Of a stretch of 54,677 nucleotides of DNA, positions 608-17,290 are shown piece after piece (the first letter of the stretch is position 1; every line of letters begins with the position of its first letter). The position numbers were made by a program, and so were the translations under genes. This stretch comes from an uncultured Candidatus Rokubacteria bacterium (GTDB lineage Bacteria > Methylomirabilota > Methylomirabilia > Rokubacteriales > DASRDR01), in NCBI GenBank assembly GCA_963708025.1, contig CAVPSB010000009.1, positions 1-54,677 of the forward strand. Reading direction: 5' to 3'. Below the pieces are notes generated by a model. That model saw only the letters and a list, made by a program, of their open reading frames with translations. It was not told the origin of the DNA and did not search any database.

Positions 608-691
608 CGGGCGAGATGCCGCGCGCCGTGAGGCCGCGGTGGAGTCCCTCGTGCCAACCGTCTCGACATGCTCAGCCACGGAGGTCCCGTC

Positions 692-1726
692 GTGAAGCCT
701 CGATCGATCGCTCTGCTGGTTCTCGGTCTCGGCCTGGCGGTCATGGCCATCACCCCCGCCGCCGGGCAGGATCGCCTGCGGCTCACCGGATCGGGCGCGA
801 GCTTCCCGTTCCCTCTCTACTCGGCCTGGTTCAAGTCGTTCGGCAGCAAGCACAAGAGCGTCACCGTCGACTACCAGGCCAAGGGCAGCGGGGCGGGGAT
901 CCAGGACTTCATCAACCGGACAGTGGACTTCGCCGCCAGCGACGCGGCCATGACCGACGAGGAGATGGCCAAGGTGCCCGGCGGCGTCCAGCTCTTGCCG
1001 ATGACCGGCGGCGAGATCGTGCTCGGCTACAACCTCCCCGGGAACCCCAAAGGCTTGAAGCTGCCCCGTGACGTGTACGCCGGCATCTTCCTCGGCAAGA
1101 TCACCAAGTGGAGCGACCCGAAGCTGAAAGCGGCCAATCCCGGCCTCACGCTGCCGGACACGGACATCACCGTCGTGCGGCGGGCCGACGCCAGCGGAAC
1201 CACCTTCGTGTTCACGAACCATCTGAGCGCCATCAGCGACGAGTGGAAGAAGGGACCCGGGGTGGGGACGACCGTCAACTGGCCGAAGAGCGACAAGTTC
1301 GTGGCCTCGCCCAAGAACGACGGCGTCAGCGCCACCATCAAGCAGACCCCCGGCGCGGTCGGCTACGTCGAGTATGCCTTCGCCAAGTTCGCGAAGCTGG
1401 AGGTCGCGCTCCTGCAGAACCGGGCGGGACAGTTCGTCGCCCCCGGCGGCGAGGGGGGGGCCGAGGCCCTCGCCAACGTCAAGCTCCCGGCCGACCTGCG
1501 CGCCTGGGTGACGGACCCCGAGGGCCCCAAGTCCTACCCGATCGCCACCTACACGTGGATGCTCTTCTACAAGGACAACAAGGACCCCAAGAAGGCGGCG
1601 GCGCTGCGTGAGCTCGTGGACTACTGCCTGGCGGAAGGGCAGAAGATGAGCGAGCAGATGGGATACATCCCGCTCCCGGCGACCGTCGTCGGCGCCGTCA
1701 AGAAGGCCAGCAGCAGCATCCAGTGA
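692..1726 (+). CDS. pstS: Phosphate ABC transporter substrate-binding protein
   Basis: GSGASFP, GSGAG, DFAASD, RADASGTT motifs and a signal peptide. GTG 692 follows GGAGG (ORF track starts at 668). Confidence 0.95.
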   Translation: MKPRSIALLVLGLGLAVMAITPAAGQDRLRLTGSGASFPFPLYSAWFKSFGSKHKSVTVDYQAKGSGAGIQDFINRTVDFAASDAAMTDEEMAKVPGGVQLLPMTGGEIVLGYNLPGNPKGLKLPRDVYAGIFLGKITKWSDPKLKAANPGLTLPDTDITVVRRADASGTTFVFTNHLSAISDEWKKGPGVGTTVNWPKSDKFVASPKNDGVSATIKQTPGAVGYVEYAFAKFAKLEVALLQNRAGQFVAPGGEGGAEALANVKLPADLRAWVTDPEGPKSYPIATYTWMLFYKDNKDPKKAAALRELVDYCLAEGQKMSEQMGYIPLPATVVGAVKKASSSIQ

Positions 1727-2727
1727 TGGATGCCCCGGGCGACTCGACCGCGACCCTGAAGGATGCCGGGTTCGCGCCGGCGGGCCGGGCTGGCTCGATC
1801 TCGGGCCCGCCCTCCACGTGGGACTACGCCGCCGACCGGGCGTTCCGGGCCCTCGCCCAAGGGGGGGCCTGGCTGATCCTGCTCGTCCTGGCCGCCATCC
1901 TGTGGGAGATCGGCAGCAAGGCCTGGCCCGGCATCCGCGACTACGGCTTCGGCTTCCTCACGTCCACCACCTGGGACGCCAACAAGAACCAGTTCGGCAT
2001 CCTGCCCGAGATCTGGGGGACGCTGTACAGCTCCTTCCTCGCCTTGCTGATCGGTGGGTTCTTCGGGGTGGTCATGGCGATCTTCCTCACCCAGGACTTC
2101 CTCCCGCCCCGGATGGCCCTGGTGTTCCGGACCGTCGTCGAGCTGCTGGCGGCCATCCCCAGCGTGGTGTACGGGCTGTGGGGCCTGTACGTCGTCGTGC
2201 CCACGATGCGGCCGGTGGCCGACTGGCTGTACGGGCGGCTCGGCTGGATCCCGTTCTTCGGCACGACCCTCAGCGGGCCGGGCCTGGCCCCCGCTGCCCT
2301 GGTGCTCGCGATCATGGTGCTGCCGACGGTCGCCGCCGTCTCTCAGGACGCGCTCCGCCTGGTCCCGTACAAGGTGAAGGAGGCGGCCTACGGGCTGGGC
2401 ACCACCCGCTGGGAGGCCATCCTGAAGGTGATGCTGCCGGCGGCCTCGACCGGCATCTTCGGCGCCCTCGTGCTGGGGTTCGGCCGGGCGCTCGGCGAGA
2501 CGATGGCCCTGGCCATGCTCATCGGCAACTCGAACCAGCTCGCGCTGTCGCTCTTCTCGCCCGCCAACACGCTGGCCGCGCTGCTCGCCCTGAACTTCCC
2601 GGAGGCCGGCCCGCGACAGGTGCAGGTGCTGATGTACGCGGCGCTGGCCCTGCTCGCCATCACCCTCCTGGTCAACCTCGCCGGCGAGGCCATCATGCGG
2701 CTCTCCTCGAAAGAGGTCCGGAAGTGA
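1726..2727 (+). CDS. pstC: Phosphate ABC permease
   Basis: ELLAAIPSVVYGLWG and GRALGETMA; overlaps the pstS stop. Confidence 0.95.
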   Translation: MDAPGDSTATLKDAGFAPAGRAGSISGPPSTWDYAADRAFRALAQGGAWLILLVLAAILWEIGSKAWPGIRDYGFGFLTSTTWDANKNQFGILPEIWGTLYSSFLALLIGGFFGVVMAIFLTQDFLPPRMALVFRTVVELLAAIPSVVYGLWGLYVVVPTMRPVADWLYGRLGWIPFFGTTLSGPGLAPAALVLAIMVLPTVAAVSQDALRLVPYKVKEAAYGLGTTRWEAILKVMLPAASTGIFGALVLGFGRALGETMALAMLIGNSNQLALSLFSPANTLAALLALNFPEAGPRQVQVLMYAALALLAITLLVNLAGEAIMRLSSKEVRK

Positions 2728-3635
2728 GCGAGCGCGACGTCGCGGTGGCGCCGCCGGCGCCCGTCGCGTTCCCCAGTCTGCAGCGGTCCACGCTGGAGCG
2801 GCGCGCGCTGCGCAGCTTCCTCCTGACCGCCGGCATCTGGGCGGCGGCGATCGTGGCCGCCATCCCGCTGGTGTCGGTGCTGTACATGCTGATCGTGCGG
2901 GGCTGGTCGCGGCTCAGCTGGGAGCTCTTCACCGAGCTGCCGCCGGCGGGCTTCGAGGTGGGCGGGGGATTCGGCAACGCCATCGTGGGCACCCTGGTGA
3001 TGGTCGGGATCGCGACCCTCATCAGCATCCCGGTGGGCATTCTCGCCGCCGTGTTCCTGGCCGAGCTGGGACCGGACAGCCAGCTGGCCCGGGCGACGCG
3101 CTTCGCGGCCAAGACGCTGACCGGGCTGCCCTCCATCCTGGCCGGCGTGTTCGCCTACGCCGCGGTCGTGCTGGTGACCGGCAGCTACTCGGCGCCGGCC
3201 GGCGGCCTGGCCCTGGCCGTCCTGATGCTGCCCACCGTCATCCTGACAGCCGAGGAAGCCATGAAGACGGTGCCCCGGATCACCAAGGACGCGGCCTACG
3301 GGATGGGCTGCACCCGGAGCCAGGTGATCTGGAAGGTCGTGCTGCCCACCGCCATGCCGGGCATCCTGACCGGTGTGATGCTGGCGGTGGCCCGGGCGGC
3401 CGGCGAGACGGCGCCGCTCCTGTTCACCGCCCTCTTCAGCAGCTACTGGCTGTTCGAGGGCGGCCGCCCCCATCTGATGCAGCCCACCGCCTCGCTGGCC
3501 GTGCTGATCTTCAACTTCTCGGGCATGCCGTTCGACAACCAGATCCAGCTGGCGTGGGCCGCCTCGCTGGTCCTCGTGCTGCTCGTGCTGGTCATCAACG
3601 TACTCAGCCGGCTGATCGGCCAGCGCCGGATCTGA
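2724..3635 (+). CDS. pstA: Phosphate ABC permease
   Basis: GLPSILAG and ARAAGETAPLLFT; GTGA overlap with pstC. Confidence 0.95.
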   Translation: MSERDVAVAPPAPVAFPSLQRSTLERRALRSFLLTAGIWAAAIVAAIPLVSVLYMLIVRGWSRLSWELFTELPPAGFEVGGGFGNAIVGTLVMVGIATLISIPVGILAAVFLAELGPDSQLARATRFAAKTLTGLPSILAGVFAYAAVVLVTGSYSAPAGGLALAVLMLPTVILTAEEAMKTVPRITKDAAYGMGCTRSQVIWKVVLPTAMPGILTGVMLAVARAAGETAPLLFTALFSSYWLFEGGRPHLMQPTASLAVLIFNFSGMPFDNQIQLAWAASLVLVLLVLVINVLSRLIGQRRI

Positions 3636-3653: not shown

Positions 3654-4487
3654 ATGAGTCCGCTGCGACCCGCGAACACCCCGGAGCCCGGACCGAACGG
3701 CGGGCCGGGACGCTCCGACGTCGTGATCGACTGCCAGCTGCGAGAGGTCTACTACGGCAGCTTCCTCGCCGTCCGGGACAGCCACGTGCAGATCGAGCGG
3801 GGGAAGATCACCGGCTTCATCGGCCCCTCGGGGTGCGGCAAGAGCACGGTCCTCCGGAGCCTCAACCGGATGAACGACCTGATCCGCGGCTTTCGCATCA
3901 AAGGCAACGTCCACTTCCACGGGCAGGACGTGTACGGCCGCGGAGTGGATCCCGTCGCCGTGCGCCGGCACATCGGCATGGTCTTCCAGCAGCCGAATCC
4001 GTTCGCGATGAGCATCTTCGACAACGTGGCCTTCGGCCTCCGGCTCAACCGGTACCGGGGGAACATGGCCGAGCGGGTGGAGCAGGCGCTGAGGAAGTCG
4101 GCGCTCTGGGACGAGGTGAAGGACAAGCTCAAGAACAACGGGCTGTCCCTCTCCGGCGGCCAGCAGCAGCGCCTGTGCATCGCCCGGGCCGTGGCCACCG
4201 AGCCGGCGGTGCTCCTCATGGACGAGCCCTGCTCGGCCCTGGACCCGATCGCGACCCGGCGCATCGAGGAGCTGATGGTCCAGCTGAAGGCCAACTACAC
4301 GATCGCGATCGTCACCCACAACATGCAGCAGGCCCAGCGGGTCGCCGACACGACCGCGTTCTTCTCGGTGGACATCTCCAAGGGGAACCGGACCGGCTAT
4401 CTCGTCGAGACCGGCCCCACCAAGCAGCTCTTCGACAGCCCGCGCGAGCAGATGACCAAGGAGTACGTCACGGGCCAGTTCAGCTGA
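3654..4487 (+). CDS. pstB: Phosphate ABC ATPase
   Basis: [39 protein letters not shown]. Confidence 0.97.
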
Positions 4488-5569
4488 TGCCGCCGGGGGA
4501 CATCGCCGTGGGTGCGGGAGCTGCGCTGGTGGCCGTCCTCGCCGCCGGGTGGCTGGCGGCGGGCCTGCCGGCGCACGGCCAGGAGGCCGGCCGGCCGGGG
4601 GCGCCCGGCGCCCCGGTCGTGGTGCACGGGGCCGGGGCGACGTTTCCGGCTCCTCTCTACGAGAAGTGGATCGCGACGTTCCGGCGGCAGAACCCGGACC
4701 TGACGATCACGTACGACGTGGTGGGAAGCGGCGAGGGCACGAAGCGCTTCCTGGCCAATGCCGTCGATTTCGGCGCCAGCGACGCGGCGCTGAGCGACGA
4801 GCAGCTGGCCAGCGTCAAGCCGGGCGCCCAGCTGGTGCCGGTCACGGCCGGGATCGTCGTGCTCGCCTACAACCTGCCGGGGCTGGGCGGAGAGCTGCAG
4901 TTCAGCCGTGACGTCTACGTGGACATCTTCGGAGGCCGGATCCGGACCTGGAACGATCCGCGGATCCGGGCGGACAACCCCGGCCTCGCGCTTCCCAACC
5001 GCAGCATCGCCACGGTGGTGCGCCAGGACGGGAGCGGAACGACCTACGCCTTGACGGCGCACCTGAGCGCGGTGAGCCCGGCGTGGCGCGACCGGGGGGC
5101 GGGCGCCGGCACGCTCGTGAGCTGGCCGGGCAGCGCCATGCGGGCGCGCGGCAACGAGGGGGTGGCCGGGCGCATCAAGGTCAGCGAGGGGTCCATCGGG
5201 TACGTGGAGTATCACTTCGCCAAGCGGCTGGGGCTGCCCATGGCCCGGATCCAGAACCGGGCCGGTCGATTCGTGGCGCCGAGCGAGAGCAGCGGGCAGG
5301 TCGCCCTGGCCGGCAACGTGAAGCAGATGCCCGCCAACCTGCGCCTCTTCCTCCCGGACCCGGAAGGTCAGGATGCTTACCCGATCGTGACGCTGAGCTG
5401 GCTCCTGCTCTACGAGCGGTATCCGGATCCGGGCAAGAGCGCGGCCCTGAAGCGGTTCGTGTCGTGGGGTCTCACCGAGGGCCAGGCGTACAGCCGCGAG
5501 CTGGGCTACATCCCCTTGCCCGACGAGGTCGCGTCTCGGTCCCTCGCGGCGCTGGATCGGATCCGGTGA
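4487..5569 (+). CDS. pstS: Second phosphate-binding protein
   Basis: GAGATFPAPLY, GSGEG, DFGASD, RQDGSGTT; TGATG overlap with pstB. Confidence 0.92.
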   Translation: MPPGDIAVGAGAALVAVLAAGWLAAGLPAHGQEAGRPGAPGAPVVVHGAGATFPAPLYEKWIATFRRQNPDLTITYDVVGSGEGTKRFLANAVDFGASDAALSDEQLASVKPGAQLVPVTAGIVVLAYNLPGLGGELQFSRDVYVDIFGGRIRTWNDPRIRADNPGLALPNRSIATVVRQDGSGTTYALTAHLSAVSPAWRDRGAGAGTLVSWPGSAMRARGNEGVAGRIKVSEGSIGYVEYHFAKRLGLPMARIQNRAGRFVAPSESSGQVALAGNVKQMPANLRLFLPDPEGQDAYPIVTLSWLLLYERYPDPGKSAALKRFVSWGLTEGQAYSRELGYIPLPDEVASRSLAALDRIR

Positions 5570-5670
5570 CCGGCCGCCCGGGGTCGCCGGGAACACGCGA
5601 GCGGGCGGGCCAGCGCTGAGACACCTCGAGACCCCCGGCCCCCCCGTGGGGGGCGCCTCCCCCCGGTAGC

Positions 5671-6357
5671 GTGGACTCTCGGGGGCGCGCGGAGGGCGGC
5701 CCGACCGCCACGCGCATAGACCTCGCCGCCGTCGAGGCCTCCCTGCGCCGGGTGCAGCGGGGATTCGAGACCATCAACGCCCGACTGAGCGCCCGCCGCG
5801 AGCCGATGAGTGACCCCGTGGTCGAGAACATGCTCGCCGGGTACGGGTTCGTCGACGGGCTGGTGGTCGCCGGGATCGACCTGTTCGCCCTGGGCAACCT
5901 GAAGTACCTGCTGGAGCTGAACACCATCGTGCTGTGCGGGACGGACCCGCTCCGGCGGGAGCGGTACGCGCGGCACATCGAGGCGACCGAGCGACACTTC
6001 TACGAGGAACGGGAAGGCGGGATCCAGGACGTCGTCGAATGGTACGCCGCCCACCAGCAGGAGTCGGCCTGGAGCCGCGCCGCCGGCGCCTACGTGCGCA
6101 TCCTCAGCAAGCCCCAGCTGTTCATCGAGGGGAATCACCGCACCGGAGCGCTGGTCATGAGCCACATCCTGCTCGAGGATGGGCAGCCCCCGTTCGTGCT
6201 CTCCGTCGAGAACGCCGACTTCTACTTCAACCCGTCACTGGCAGTCAGGGACACCGAGAAGAAGAGCCCGGCCATGCTGTTCCGCTTGCTCGGGGTCAAG
6301 ACGCGGCTGACCGGGCTGCTGCGGGAAACCTCCGATCGGCGGTACCTGCGCGCCTGA
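5671..6357 (+). CDS. Fic/Doc-like protein with degenerate motif
   Basis: QLFIEGNHRTG resembles the Fic motif HPFxxGNGR, with His replaced by Gln. Confidence 0.65.
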   Translation: MDSRGRAEGGPTATRIDLAAVEASLRRVQRGFETINARLSARREPMSDPVVENMLAGYGFVDGLVVAGIDLFALGNLKYLLELNTIVLCGTDPLRRERYARHIEATERHFYEEREGGIQDVVEWYAAHQQESAWSRAAGAYVRILSKPQLFIEGNHRTGALVMSHILLEDGQPPFVLSVENADFYFNPSLAVRDTEKKSPAMLFRLLGVKTRLTGLLRETSDRRYLRA

Positions 6358-6436
6358 GCGGTGTCCGCCGTCGACTCGAAGAGGCGCGTCGTCGGGCGGC
6401 CGCGGTGGGTTGACGGCAAGGCCGACGTGCTACCCG

Positions 6437-8101
6437 TTACGTGAAGTTGCGGGCCCGCGCCAGGTCGAAGGCGTCGTCCACGTCGAGCCAGTCGCCGACG
6501 ACGTAGACCACCCCGACCTCGTGCCCGGCCGCGATCAGCCGGGAGAAGACCTCCAGGAGACTCGCCCGCGCCCGGCTCCCGTCGGCGCCCATGGCCTCGA
6601 GCTCGGCCCGGAGGAGGGCCGAGCCCGGCGCCGAGAGCCGGGCGAGCCCGATCCACTCCCCGTGCGCCTCCGGCGGTGCGAGGTCGTTGCCGATCCGGCG
6701 GAGCGACACCGGCTCCTCGTCGTCCAGGTAGTTGCCGGTGAAGGGACGGGAACAGGCGACCAGGTCCGCGACGCGGTCGGGATCGGCGTCGCGCCGGTTC
6801 CGCCTCAGGGCATCGACCGCCACCACGATGTCGCCCTCGGTGGCGAGCAGGGCATCGAGGAGGTGGCGCCGGAAGAGGATGTCCCCGTAGCTGACCACGC
6901 AGGCCCCCTGGAGGCGGTCCAGCGCGCACGCCAGCGACGCGGCCTCCCCGGTCGTCTCGTAGGCGTCGTTGTCGACGGTGGCGATCCCCGGGACCGTGAT
7001 CGCGTCCTTCCGGTAGCCCCGCACGACCGTGACGTCCCGGACGCCGCAGTCCTTCAGCGTCGACACCAGCCGCTGGAGCAGGGGCGTGCCCCGGACGTCG
7101 ATCATGCACTTCGGGCGATCGGCCGTGAGCGGGCCCAGCGCCGCGCCCCGGGAGGCGGCGATCACCACCGCGCGGCCCGCGCCCCGGGGCGGCGCCAGGT
7201 ACCGGCGCTCCGCCTCCTCCAGCTCGCGGTGGCCCGCCAGCTCGAAGACGTCGCGCACGCCGGCGACCGTGCCCTCGACGCCGACCAGGCTCTCCTCCTG
7301 CCGGATCCGGCGGCTCACCTCTCGCATCGCGGTGATGGCCGCCCGCAGGTTGTGGTTGGCCCAGATGACCATCGAGATGCCGGCCTGGCGGAAGTGCTCG
7401 GTCGGGGTGGCGTAGTACATCGTGGGCACGATGACGAGCGGGCAGCGGTTCCCCCAGGCGGCGGCGAAGGCCAGGATCTCGTCGGCAGTCCGCAGCTTGG
7501 AGTGGATCAGGATCGCGTCGGCACCGGCCGCGTGGTACGCCTCGGCGCGGCGGAGCGCCTCGTCGAGCCCCCACCCCGAGATGAGCGCCTCGACGCGGGC
7601 CACGATGGACATGGCGTCGTCGGGGACGCTGTCCTTGCCCGCCTTGATCTTGCCGCAGAACTCGTCGACGTCGGCCAGCGGCTGGTGCTCGCCCAGGAAG
7701 GAGTTGGTCTTCGGGAAGAGCTTGTCCTCGATGCACACCCCGGCGATGCCGCGCTGGGAGAGCTTCCTGACCAGCCGCCGGACGTTGTTGAAGTTGCCGT
7801 AGCCGGTGTCCCCGTCGACCAGGATCGGGATCGACGTGGCGTCGGCCATGAACTCCAGGACCTCCAGCACCTGCGTCCAGGACGCCTCGTTGTTGTCCCG
7901 GACGCCCAGGGCCGCCGAGATCGACAGGCCCGACGCCCAGATCCCCGTGAACCCGGCCTCCTCCACGATCTTGGCGGAGAGACCGTTGTGCGCCTCCATG
8001 AGGAAGGAAAGACCGGGCGAGTCCAGCTCGGCCCGGAGCCGGGCCGCCCTGGACAGGCCCCGCTGGTCAACGGCGGTCGAGTGGGGCAGCTGGGTCCACA
8101 T
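6437..8101 (-). CDS. aepX: Phosphoenolpyruvate mutase fused to a C-terminal nucleotidyltransferase (PntC/LicC-like)
   Basis: [10 protein letters not shown] matches the Ppm EDKx5NS motif; DGDTGYG. C-terminal [26 protein letters not shown]. Start is ATG 8101 or GTG 8146. Confidence 0.9.
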
Positions 8102-8193
8102 GCCGGCGTTCGCCTCCGATGTCACCGAAGTCCGCGCCCCCGTCACGCGGCTGTCACAAGATTACACGAAAGGGGCGTGGGGCGGCCCGCCGG

Positions 8194-13986: not shown

Positions 13987-14034
13987 ACAACCGACCGGAG
14001 TTGGACGACACTGATGCCGCCAGGAGGATTTCGG

Positions 14035-15435
14035 GTGAGCGTGACGTACGACTACGACCTCGTGTCGATCGGCAGCGGCCCGGCCGGCCAGCGGGCGGCC
14101 ATCCAGGCCGCCAAGCTGGGAAAGCGCGCCGCCGTCATCGAGAAGCGCCAGTGCCTGGGCGGCGTCTGCGTGGACACCGGGACGATCCCCAGCAAGACGC
14201 TCCGCGAGGCGGTCATCGCCTACGCCGGCCCGGGTGGCCGGTTCGACCGCCGCCGCGCCGGTCGCGCGGAGGGCCGGCCCACCGCGGACGCGCTGCTGGC
14301 CCGGGTCGAAGAGGTCGTCGCCCGCGAGGCGGAGGTGGTCGAGGACCAGCTCCGCCGGAACGACGTGGCGACGCTCCGCGGCGAGGGGGCGTTCGTCGAT
14401 CCCCACACCCTGGTGATCCGCGAGGGCGAGAGCTGGCGCCAGGTCAGGACCGAGCACGTGCTGATCGCCGTCGGCACCGGCCCCGTCCCGCCGCCCGGGG
14501 TGGCGGCCGACGGCCAGGTCGTCATGACGACCGACGACGTCATCCACCTCGAGTCCGTCCCCCGGACGATGGCCGTCGTCGGCGCCGGCGTCATCGGCGT
14601 CGAGTACGCCTCGATGTTCGCGGCGCTCGGGGTCCAGGTCACGCTGATCGAGAAGCGCGAGCGGTTCCTGGAGTTCCTCGACCGGGAGATCGTGGACGAG
14701 CTGATGCACCAGATGCGGGAGCGGAAGCTGACGTTCCGCCTGGGGGAGGCCGTGGAGCGGATCGAGGTCGCCGAGGGGCCACCCCGCCGCGCCGTCATCC
14801 TCCTGGAATCGGGCAAGCGGATCGTCGCCGACCTGGCGCTGTTCTCGGCCGGCCGGCTGGCCCTCAGCGGCCCGCTGAACCTCGCCGCCGCCGGCCTCAC
14901 CGCCGACGAGCGGGGCCGGCTCAAGGTCGACGCCGCCTTCCGCACCGCCGTGCCGCACATCTTCGCGGCGGGCGACGTCATCGGCTACCCGAACCTGGCC
15001 GCCACCTCGGCCGAGCAGGGGCGCCTGGCCGCCTGCCACGCCTTCGGCGTCGACGCCGGGACGATGGAGCCGCACTTCCCGATCGGGCTCTACTCCATCC
15101 CCGAGATCTCCATGGTCGGCGCGCCCGAGCACGAGCTGACCCTGCAGAAGGTGCCCTACGAGATCGGGATCGCGCGGTACCGCGAGATCGCGCGGGGCCA
15201 GATCCTGGGCGACGACAGCGGCCTCTTCAAGATGCTCTTCCACCGGGAGACGCGCCGCCTGCTCGGGGTGCACGCGATCGGTACCGGCGCCACCGAGCTG
15301 ATCCACATCGGGCAGGCCGTGCTGGGCCTCGGCGGCGGTCTCGACTACTTCCTGCGCACCGTCTTCAACTACCCGACGCTGGCCGAGTGTTACAAGGTCG
15401 CCGCCCTCGACGCCTCGAACAAGCTCGGCCGCTGA
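14035..15435 (+). CDS. sthA: Soluble pyridine nucleotide transhydrogenase
   Basis: GSGPAG, GGVCVDTGTIPSKTLREA (single Cys), FNYPTLAECYKVAALDASNKL. Confidence 0.9.
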   Translation: MSVTYDYDLVSIGSGPAGQRAAIQAAKLGKRAAVIEKRQCLGGVCVDTGTIPSKTLREAVIAYAGPGGRFDRRRAGRAEGRPTADALLARVEEVVAREAEVVEDQLRRNDVATLRGEGAFVDPHTLVIREGESWRQVRTEHVLIAVGTGPVPPPGVAADGQVVMTTDDVIHLESVPRTMAVVGAGVIGVEYASMFAALGVQVTLIEKRERFLEFLDREIVDELMHQMRERKLTFRLGEAVERIEVAEGPPRRAVILLESGKRIVADLALFSAGRLALSGPLNLAAAGLTADERGRLKVDAAFRTAVPHIFAAGDVIGYPNLAATSAEQGRLAACHAFGVDAGTMEPHFPIGLYSIPEISMVGAPEHELTLQKVPYEIGIARYREIARGQILGDDSGLFKMLFHRETRRLLGVHAIGTGATELIHIGQAVLGLGGGLDYFLRTVFNYPTLAECYKVAALDASNKLGR

Positions 15436-15448
15436 CGGCGATCCGCCC

Positions 15449-16886
15449 GTGCAGGCTACCCTCGAGCGCGAGCTGAAGCTCTCCGTCCGCCCCGGCTTCC
15501 GGCTCCCCGCCCTGCCCGGCGATCGGCTGCCGCCCCGGGTCTTCACCTCGACGTACTACGACACGCCGGACTATCGGCTGGCCCGCGCCGGCGTCACGCT
15601 GCGGCGTCGCACCGAGGGGCGGCGGGGTGCCTGGCAGCTCAAGCTCCCGCGGGGCGCCGCCCGCCTGGAGCTGGAAGTGGCGGGCGGGCCCGGACACCCC
15701 CCCGACGAGGTGCGTGAGCTGGTGACCGCGTACGCACGGGGCCACGAGCCGGCCCCGGTGGCGACGCTCCGCTCGCGCCGCACCGGCGTCCGCGTGCGGG
15801 GCCTGGCGGGCCCGATCGCCGACGTGGTCGTCGACGCCGTGGCGTTGCTCGACGGCCGGAAGGTGCTCCGCCGTCTCCGCGAGCTCGAGGTCGAGCTGCT
15901 CGACGGGGACGAGGCCGCGCTCGGCCAGATCGAGCAGACCCTCCGCGCGGCCGGCGCCGCCGATGGGGACGGGCGGCCCAAGCTCTTCCAGGCGCTCGAT
16001 CTGTCGCCCCCGGCGGCGCCGACTCCGCCCGACGCCACCGCGCCGGCCGCCGAGCACCTCGCCGCCATGATCGGGGCGCAGCTCGCCGCGATGCTGGCCC
16101 ACGACCCCGGCACGCGGCTCGGAAGCCACCCCGAAGACCTCCACCAGATGCGCGTGGCGACGCGGCGGCTCCGGGCCCTCCTGCGCGCCGCGCGGCCGAT
16201 GCTCGCCACCGAGTGGGTCGAGCCGCTCCGCGCGGAGCTGGCGTGGCTCGGCGATCTCCTGGGCCCGGTCCGCGACCTCGACGTCTTGCTCGGGCACCTC
16301 CGGGATCAGGCCGCGCTCCTGGCGCCGGCCGAGCGCCGCGCGTTCGCGACGGCTCCTCCGCCGCCTCGACGCCGAGCGGGGCCAGGCCCGCACCGCGATG
16401 CTCGACGCGCTCCGGAGCGAGCGGTACCTGCGCCTCCTCGAGCGGCTCGAGGACGGCGGCCGTGCCCCGCAGGTCGTCGCGCCGGAGACGTCGCTGGCCT
16501 CCATCGCGGGTGTCGAGTTCCGGAAGCTGCGCAAGGCCATGGCCGCGCTCGGGGAGGAGCCGACCGACGCGGAGCTGCACGCCATCCGGATCCGGGGCAA
16601 GCGCGCCCGCTACGCCGCCGAGCTGGCCGAGGCCGCCGTCGGGAAGCCGGCGTCGCGCTTCATCCGGAAGGCGCGGCTCTTTCAGGACGTGCTGGGAGAG
16701 CACCAGGATGCCGTCGTCGCCGAGGAGCGCCTCCGGCGGCTCATCGCCGAGAGCGGGGGCCGCCAGGCGGCCTTCGCGGCCGGGCGGCTGGTCGAGCGCC
16801 AGCACGCCCGCCGCGAGGCGGCGCGGGCGGCGCTGCCGGGGATCTGGAAGAAGGTGGAAAAGCGGGGACTGGCGGCGTGGCCGTGA
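15449..16886 (+). CDS. CYTH-CHAD domain protein (+1 frameshift near 16349)
   Basis: ERELKL, YYDT, ELEVEL (CYTH). LHQMRVATRRLR, LHAIRIRGKRARY, QDVLGEHQD (CHAD). Split over two frames. Confidence 0.85.
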
Positions 16887-17290
16887 GCGAGGTGGTGCGG
16901 GCCGCGGGCGGCATCGTCTCGCGGGCGAACGAGCGCGGCCAGCTGGAGGTCCTGCTCGTCTACCGCACCGAGCAGGACGACTGGACCTTTCCCAAGGGCA
17001 AGGCGCTCCTCGGCGAGACGGACGAGGCGTGCGCGCTCCGCGAGGTCGAGGAGGAGACCGGCCTCCGGTGCGCCATCCAGGCCGAGGTCGGGGAGGCCCG
17101 CTACCGGGACGGCGCCGGCCGGCGGAAGATCGTCCGTTACTGGGCGATGCGCCCGGTCGCCGGCACCGCCACCGCGCAGAGCGAGATCGACGCGATCCGC
17201 TGGGCCGCGCTCCCCGCCGCGGCCGGGCTTCTCACGTACGAGCGCGACCGCGCCGTGCTCGCCGCCTTCGCGGGCACCCGCCGCCACTGA
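16883..17290 (+). CDS. NUDIX hydrolase
   Basis: WTFPKGKALLGETDEACALREVEEETG Nudix box; GTGA overlap. Confidence 0.9.
   Translation: MSEVVRAAGGIVSRANERGQLEVLLVYRTEQDDWTFPKGKALLGETDEACALREVEEETGLRCAIQAEVGEARYRDGAGRRKIVRYWAMRPVAGTATAQSEIDAIRWAALPAAAGLLTYERDRAVLAAFAGTRRH

Follow-up and report, generated by a model that had tools for sequence, protein, structure and literature searches.

Organization of the locus

The window analysed here, a stretch of 54,677 nucleotides from an uncultured Candidatus Rokubacteria bacterium, carries a phosphate transport (pst) operon on its forward strand. The first gene, pstS (668..1726), matched PBP_like_2 and was recognized in homolog loci. It is followed by pstC (1723..2727) and pstA (2724..3635), both assigned from homolog loci and from a homologous plasmid locus in which pstC is annotated as such, by pstB (3654..4487), whose subtype was assigned by sequence identity and which has a C-terminal VDIS..RTG insertion, and by a second pstS gene, pstS2 (4487..5569). 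Directly downstream of pstS2 lies the gene under study (5671..6357, forward strand), an exact open reading frame with a GTG start encoding a 228-residue protein that contains KPQLFIEGNHRTGA and has a His-less Fic fold, hereafter Gln-Fido. The protein is predicted to be cytoplasmic, and 124 of 124 members lacked a signal-like N-terminus. The gene is single-copy in the Rokubacteria source genome, and its codon-position GC content (0.69/0.44/0.93) is like that of the neighbouring genes. As the initial annotation stated, it follows pstS2 on the same strand, at a distance of 101 bp, and 79 bp separate its end from that of the convergent gene for a PEP mutase-nucleotidyltransferase fusion (pepM; 6437..8146, reverse strand). 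In the window, these two flanks are too close for an antitoxin gene to fit in, in agreement with the earlier statement that none is adjacent.

The region from 1 to 21126 of the window forms a phosphorus island, comprising the pst operon, the pepM fusion, phoX, phoD, CYTH-CHAD, NUDIX and ROK kinase genes and a PhoR/PhoB-like pair. The CYTH-CHAD gene (15449-17290) looks frameshifted, which may be an assembly error: the C-terminal half of CHAD lies in another frame (16398-16883), and the first frame continues into a NUDIX domain. A Pho-box-like tandem with one mismatch was seen at 8140-8157, between pepM and phoX, which are transcribed divergently, although such matches in the window are overall at chance level. 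Further pstS2-like genes lie away from pstCAB in the same genome (G000:C48:47217-48362 and C18:543827-544716), the C18 copy being frameshifted.

Overall structure of Gln-Fido

The Pfam Fic profile matched Gln-Fido with an E-value of 0.001 and 20.4 bits, which is below the cut-off of 24. The NCBIfam search of Gln-Fido returned no match, TIGR01550 matched weakly in 2 of 124 members, and no PhoU (PF01895) match was found in the protein. The best PDB sequence matches were to FICD, with an E-value of 1.6e-5 for the single sequence and 7e-10 for the family profile. A family-profile match to CpcN at 1e-14 proved to be the sum of five weak repeats, each with an E-value of 0.7 or worse, and was ignored.

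An AlphaFold2 model built on 124 sequences was all-helical, with a pLDDT of 93.9 and a pTM of 0.91. Foldseek ranked FICD first (E-value 5e-4, TM 0.46), and in a wide structural search of 48,161 chains, ranks 1 to 23 were all occupied by Fido proteins with Z-scores of 12.3 to 6.4, whereas the next unrelated chain scored 3.9. The Z-scores were 12.3 for FICD (rmsd of 3.8 over 172 residues), 10.2 for AvrB, 8.8 for Doc and 8.8 for AnkX. In the region of the flap β-hairpin, the predicted structure contained no strand of at least three residues. Judged by this model, Gln-Fido has the Fido fold with the conserved helical Fic core; the structure prediction and structural search proposed in the initial annotation, together with the FICD profile match, thus bear out its description of the protein as Fic-like.

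Conservation of the Fic-like motif

The motif (PQLFIEGNHRTG) reads K-P-Q-L-F-I-E-G-N-H-R-T-G-A and is encoded at 6109-6150 in the frame that starts at 5671. Its core, PQLFIEGNHR (P148-R157; 6112..6141, forward strand), has Gln at the position of the catalytic His and keeps E153, G154, N155 and R157. Q149 lies opposite the catalytic His in an ungapped alignment to canonical Fic (L232); in one profile alignment a gap shifts the register, and the residue then facing the His is variable (K, Q, R or E). The GN(x)R anion-nest loop at the helix N-terminus is present and aligns to the Fic motif.

A homolog search yielded 1,317 proteins at an E-value of 0.001 or better among 2,375 candidates, a representative library yielded 386, and the motif was tallied in 377 unique fetched sequences that match the motif pattern. 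At the His position, 373 of the 377 carry Gln, 4 carry Glu and none carries His; E153 is kept in 122 of 124 aligned sequences, and G154, N155 and R157 each in 123. What the initial annotation had read from a single sequence, a Gln in place of the catalytic His and an anion nest that looks kept, therefore holds across the family. Two further departures from the motif went beyond that description. At motif position 8, 235 of the 377 sequences have His, 121 have Asn, 12 have Gln and 6 have Arg, and neither Gly nor Lys ever occurs there; the second Arg (RxxR, for the gamma-phosphate) is absent from all 377. The loss of canonical AMPylation residues, namely the His and the second Arg, also supports the earlier view that the protein is non-AMPylating. 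At position 197 of the 124-row alignment, 120 residues were tallied, and 118 of them are K or R.

Migration of the catalytic His was rejected, since no invariant His was found among the 124 aligned or 377 motif-bearing sequences: H102 occurs in 91 and H128 in 82 of 124, and H156 is replaced by Asn in 121 of 377. Seven of the 377 have a His two residues before the catalytic position, at a position that is variable. The inhibitory motif (S/T)xxxE(G/N) was not conserved, with at most 4 of 124 sequences matching at any single column; the alignment that maps the N-terminal helix of Gln-Fido onto the inhibitory helix was unreliable. Gln-Fido is a large family under purifying selection, with a dN/dS of 0.063 in Pseudomonas (26 of 30 loci, 320 pairs). 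Together with the family-wide Gln or Glu, this value indicates that loss of the His is an old, selected trait and not decay. We also observed the whole domain inside four giant proteins of 1,785-6,777 residues (P0215, P0240, P0261 and P0265); the three of them that were scanned contain methyltransferase, peptidase M50 or HTH domains, and the motif is degraded in P0265.

These features bear on two alternatives. Gln-Fido might be an active Doc/AnkX-like phosphotransferase that holds its nucleotide inverted and modifies PstB, Ppk1 or another protein, with a downstream HAD-like eraser in some lineages. The bulky position 8, the missing second Arg and the absence from the model of a flap strand of at least three residues are Doc-like traits, and E153 is nearly invariant. 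According to the accessible text of one report, a bulky residue at position 8 inverts ATP in Doc (PMC4177925), and the accessible part of another, by Khater and Mohanty, argues that Doc proteins with Gln for His may retain activity (PMC4454073). However, Doc and AnkX keep their catalytic His, and the Gln-Fido family has no invariant His to take that part, so that we regard such an enzyme as unlikely. The other alternative, a toxin of the Doc type that phosphate starvation would activate to arrest growth, is highly improbable. Doc is a structural relative at a Z-score of 8.8, and 'prophage maintenance system killer protein' appears among the database labels, but there is no antitoxin gene, no inhibitory motif and no catalytic His, the phage collections searched gave no match, and PADLOC matches were weak (E-value about 1e-3). 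In addition, the likely ortholog was readily detected in Pi-deplete cultures according to the accessible data of PMC5082522.

Genomic neighbourhood of the homologs

Genome loci were represented by the best 80 of 286 confirmed loci, a choice biased towards close relatives, and their neighbour genes were identified by tblastn; metagenome loci were represented by 80 of 575 confirmed, which came from a distant-clade seed and yet were mostly main-clade members. Among the best 80 of 286 genome loci, pstS was found in 77, pstB in 76, pstA in 74 and pstC in 72, and Gln-Fido lay directly after pstS2 in 51 and directly after pstB in 24, that is, in 75 of 80. As for the other five, two were 0.6 and 3.2 kb off, two were at a contig edge, and in L055 the member (6935-7693) sits right behind ppk1. 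The pst-linked genome loci come from Rokubacteria and from Alpha-, Beta- and Gammaproteobacteria, and their proteins share 47-74% identity with the query; pstS2 is absent from the Pseudomonas loci. The 80 of 575 metagenome loci comprised 64 that are pst-linked, 9 unlinked and 7 uninformative (64 of 73 informative). In rearranged metagenome loci, Gln-Fido stands before pstS in five and is divergent in one, so the link survives rearrangement, and the gene is kept beside pst down to 35% pairwise identity. phoU was found in 0 of the best 80 of 286 genome loci and in 0 of the 80 of 575 metagenome loci.

The neighbourhood analysis suggested in the initial annotation thus revealed recurrent linkage to pst but none to ppm: PEP mutase and nucleotidyltransferase genes occurred in 0 of 160 homolog loci (best 80 of 286 genome and 80 of 575 metagenome loci). 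The same annotation had raised a phosphoryl or phosphonyl transferase working with the convergent Ppm-nucleotidyltransferase. A phosphonyl transferase of this kind could draw on the adjacency in the window and on AnkX, which moves phosphocholine from CDP-choline and shares the fold (Z-score 8.8). Given the 0 of 160 loci, the convergent orientation of the two genes and the reliance of AnkX on its His, we rejected the partnership and consider the probability of this role close to negligible. The pepM gene is a neighbour in this window only and lies outside the conserved unit; its position here probably reflects local clustering in the phosphorus island.

A HAD-like gene was found in 37 and ppk1 in 20 of the best 80 of 286 genome loci, and ppx and phosphatase genes were also among the neighbours. 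The HAD-like gene comes next after Gln-Fido in 30 of 30 Pseudomonas loci and also occurs in Competibacteraceae; its product (L051:7693-8286; L020:10026-10616) carries SFD[IL]DDT and has no Pfam match, and an atlas suggests a HAD hydrolase. For the phosphotransferase described above, these neighbours would provide an eraser and a possible substrate, although the HAD-like gene was not found in 43 of the same 80 loci, nor in the window. They would also suit a phosphate-salvage enzyme acting on small molecules, such as a nucleotide, pyrophosphate or polyphosphate hydrolase co-induced with the importer, in which Gln could, by analogy, orient a water molecule. The anion nest and the metal-binding acid are kept, and the likely ortholog appears Pho-regulated in the accessible published data. 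Nevertheless, a salvage enzyme would have no need to track one transporter subtype, as this gene does in Pseudomonas (see below), and we consider it rather improbable.

Several observations concern individual loci. The unlinked member L182:5983-6642 lies in a PHA/acetate cluster, and L140:5977-6660 follows a cation/proton antiporter gene, with a PhoH-like gene and pst genes of another type nearby. A homolog of the pyridine nucleotide-disulphide oxidoreductase of the window (14014-15435) often adjoins Gln-Fido (L008, L053, L086, L087, L108, L115, L174 and L176). A search for PstS-Fic fusions, in which 8,000 candidates were scored, revealed P0468 and P0469; both were dismissed as frameshift artefacts with a truncated PstS and an off-frame linker, and pstS2 and Fic were fused in 0 of 95 pairs.

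Co-occurrence with a PstB subtype

The linked PstB is a distinct subtype, with 68-90% identity within the subtype and approximately 54-57% to the phoU-linked PstB of this genome. We searched in the reverse direction for both genes in samples that each include one known carrier as centre and in which related genomes are not independent. Among 201 Pseudomonas genomes, the same 53 carry the PstB subtype and Gln-Fido, adjacent to each other, while 148 lack both and none has only one; Gln-Fido is intact in 53 of 53 carriers. In 151 genomes of the source phylum, the subtype was found in three, with a full-length Gln-Fido beside it in the same three, and two other genomes contain Gln-Fido fragments only. 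Each gene occurs in 8 of 400 Gammaproteobacteria, of which 6 are shared with the genes adjacent; G362 has the subtype operon with no Gln-Fido match, contig ends truncate the loci of G425 and G505, and the Gln-Fido copy of G174 is broken and stands alone. Among 221 Alphaproteobacteria, two carry both genes (2/2), and one more has a distant stand-alone member. One of 72,556 plasmids has each gene, and it is the same plasmid. Gln-Fido is a constant component of a single subtype of pstSCAB operon, which has no phoU.

It could be argued that Gln-Fido is a passenger with an unrelated role on a horizontally moved pst cassette, as its distribution is patchy, with a plasmid copy and stand-alone distant members, and the distance matrices of Gln-Fido and the linked pst gene correlate only modestly (Spearman 0.35). 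We judge this very unlikely, because the gene is kept beside pst to 35% pairwise identity and through gene-order changes and is intact under purifying selection in the Pseudomonas carriers.

On contig C30, the source genome has a separate canonical pstSCAB-phoU operon together with a phoB-like gene, and the PhoU matches of this genome lie on C30 and C22; PhoU is also present in 5 of 5 other Gln-Fido carriers tested. Gln-Fido thus occupies the place of phoU in the operon of a second importer and is not a cell-wide replacement. The earlier suggestion that it stands in for PhoU could hold for this transporter, in view of the phoU slot and the recurrent pst link, but not beyond it, since PhoU is found elsewhere in the same cells. 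The VDIS..RTG insertion of the PstB subtype (region 4311-4340 of the window) is absent from the phoU-linked copy. We rejected it as a dedicated docking site for Gln-Fido, because a similar insertion is present in cyanobacterial and actinobacterial PstB (the Nostoc and Cellulosimicrobium plasmid PstBs) with no Gln-Fido gene nearby.

Expression of the operon

Lidbury et al. (2016; PMC5082522), as far as the accessible text and supplement go, describe a 26-kDa conserved hypothetical protein, PPUBIRD1_3016 (accession ADR60627), encoded beside pstB1 in P. putida BIRD-1. On Pi depletion it was up 4.96 (log2 by the heading of the supplement), with 0 spectra in six Pi-replete and 7-11 in six Pi-deplete samples, and it was undetected in a phoBR mutant. 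The computed masses for the subtype operon are 31.2 kDa for PstA, 30.2-30.3 kDa for PstB and 26.0-26.3 kDa for Gln-Fido, compared with 31, 30 and 26 kDa for the BIRD-1 proteins, and genomes with putida-like Gln-Fido copies have exactly two pstB genes in 5 of 5 cases. PPUBIRD1_3016 is therefore probably the Gln-Fido ortholog, matched by position, mass and pstB count and not by sequence. Through this ortholog, we infer that Gln-Fido is made together with the transporter under PhoB control. In P. fluorescens SBW25, the accessible text of Zhang et al. (2007; PMC2225411) describes six co-oriented genes that begin with pstS and have a Pho box; six such genes fit pstSCAB-Fic-HAD, as the HAD-like gene is next in 30 of 30 Pseudomonas loci. 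The Gln-Fido operon is very likely the Pseudomonas pst1 operon.

In 45 of 65 loci, a Pho-box-like site with at most three mismatches precedes pstS, compared with 2 of 65 shuffled sequences; none of the 65 has such a site ahead of Gln-Fido itself. No sigma-70 promoter or terminator was found at 5400-6600 of the window, and an own promoter for Gln-Fido was rejected on both grounds. The pstS of the window has a 4-mismatch site only, in a sequence whose Pho-box matches are at chance level. Among the RNA runs, only contigs with small shares were found.

Proposed role

We regard Gln-Fido as a likely, previously unrecognised regulator of phosphate import. In its specific form, a cytoplasmic accessory regulator of the phoU-less pstSCAB subtype whose retained anion nest binds a nucleotide or phosphate ligand, the proposal is tentative, standing a little short of an even chance. 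Gln-Fido would be co-produced with the importer under PhoB control, and its E-G-N-x-R nest would bind a nucleotide, pyrophosphate or phosphate without canonical AMP transfer, K/R197 possibly taking the place of the lost second Arg. In its ligand-bound form, Gln-Fido would restrain PstB or signal the state of PstB, which is the job of PhoU at the canonical Pst system. Canonical AMP transfer is unlikely, as Gln-Fido has neither the catalytic base nor the Arg for the gamma-phosphate, and the flap is absent from its model. In the accessible text of PMC8097203, His-to-Ala Fic enzymes lose transfer and keep ATP binding, so that a retained nest can serve as a binding site. Pi importers tend to carry a cognate accessory regulator, according to the accessible part of PMC13170248. 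This principle, the phoU slot and the one-to-one pairing with the PstB subtype make a transporter-coupled regulator the best reading.

Some evidence weighs against the regulator. The near-invariant E153, N155, R157 and Q149 would suit catalysis equally, the PstB insertion also occurs outside the linked operons, the G362 operon lacks Gln-Fido, and distant members are unlinked (nine metagenome loci, G898, the broken copy in G174 and the giant-protein domains). Moreover, the accessory regulators in the accessible part of PMC13170248 are all PhoU-related, and PhoU encoded elsewhere in carriers could serve both transporters. A broader formulation, which we consider somewhat less likely than not, is a Fido-fold nucleotide or phosphate switch that serves a widespread Pst subtype as an accessory regulator unrelated to PhoU, working post-translationally through ligand-gated binding or through a His-independent transfer erased by the HAD neighbour.

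A regulator of this kind, if it exists, would bring the Fic fold into the Pho regulon for the first time and would found a new class of importer regulators, with one more point at which phosphate uptake is controlled and a further function for Fic proteins. Those Fic proteins that have been characterised mostly act as toxins, effectors or modifiers of chaperones and depend on their histidine. The carriers come from soil, rhizosphere and wastewater and include Pseudomonas, Competibacter, Defluviicoccus and Rokubacteria. The proposal lends itself to direct tests, since this operon appears to be pst1 of the laboratory pseudomonads P. putida and P. fluorescens SBW25.

Comparison with known systems

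We compared Gln-Fido with canonical Fic AMPylases (FICD/HYPE, NmFic and VbhT; PF02661) and found a common Fido helical core and F-x-E-G-N-x-R nest. In contrast to these enzymes, Gln-Fido has Gln for His, GNH or GNN for GNG and no second Arg, its model lacks the flap strands, and it has no inhibitory motif, no adjacent FicA-type antitoxin gene, a Pfam score below the cut-off and a sequence that departs from HxFx[DE]GN[GK]R. Doc resembles Gln-Fido in its non-Gly position 8 and in lacking the second Arg and the β-hairpin. However, Gln-Fido has approximately 230 residues, compared with 123 in Doc, is closer to FICD-type proteins, is tied to pst and has no Phd antitoxin; the His and position-8 Lys of the Doc kinase (D1) are both found in 0 of 377 family members. 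The Doc clade D2, defined in silico from 45 sequences with the motif Qx[FY]x[DE][GV]NKR in the accessible text of Khater and Mohanty (2015; PMC4454073), likewise carries Gln at the His position, and Gln-Fido matches its Q-x-F/Y-x-E-G-N part. The position-8 Lys of D2 occurs in 0 of 377 Gln-Fido sequences, a separation made by motif description and not by a tree.

PhoU, PitR and the NptA PhoU domain, as described in the accessible part of PMC13170248, are likewise cytoplasmic, encoded at the end of an importer operon, Pho-regulated and dedicated to one importer type. Gln-Fido is encoded with its importer and appears Pho-regulated through the probable ortholog, although its predicted fold is unrelated (Fido, not PhoU). 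In AvrB and BepC, the Fido fold has been repurposed without the canonical motif or catalysis, and BepC acts by protein binding; those proteins are secreted effectors, whereas Gln-Fido is predicted to be cytoplasmic and is encoded in a housekeeping operon.

The Pseudomonas pst1 operon has been described as six co-oriented genes in SBW25 and as pstSCAB1 followed by the 26-kDa hypothetical gene in BIRD-1, with no fold or role assigned to the fifth gene in the accessible text of either report (PMC2225411, PMC5082522). His-to-Gln Fido proteins had already been noted as Doc clade D2. The pst linkage appears unreported: no description of a Fic protein linked to pst was found in the literature searched, which mostly excluded subscription papers. 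The Gln-Fido family is a real, widespread Fido variant tied to a Pst subtype, with a mechanism that we infer, and its members are labelled hypothetical or 'Fido domain-containing' in databases.
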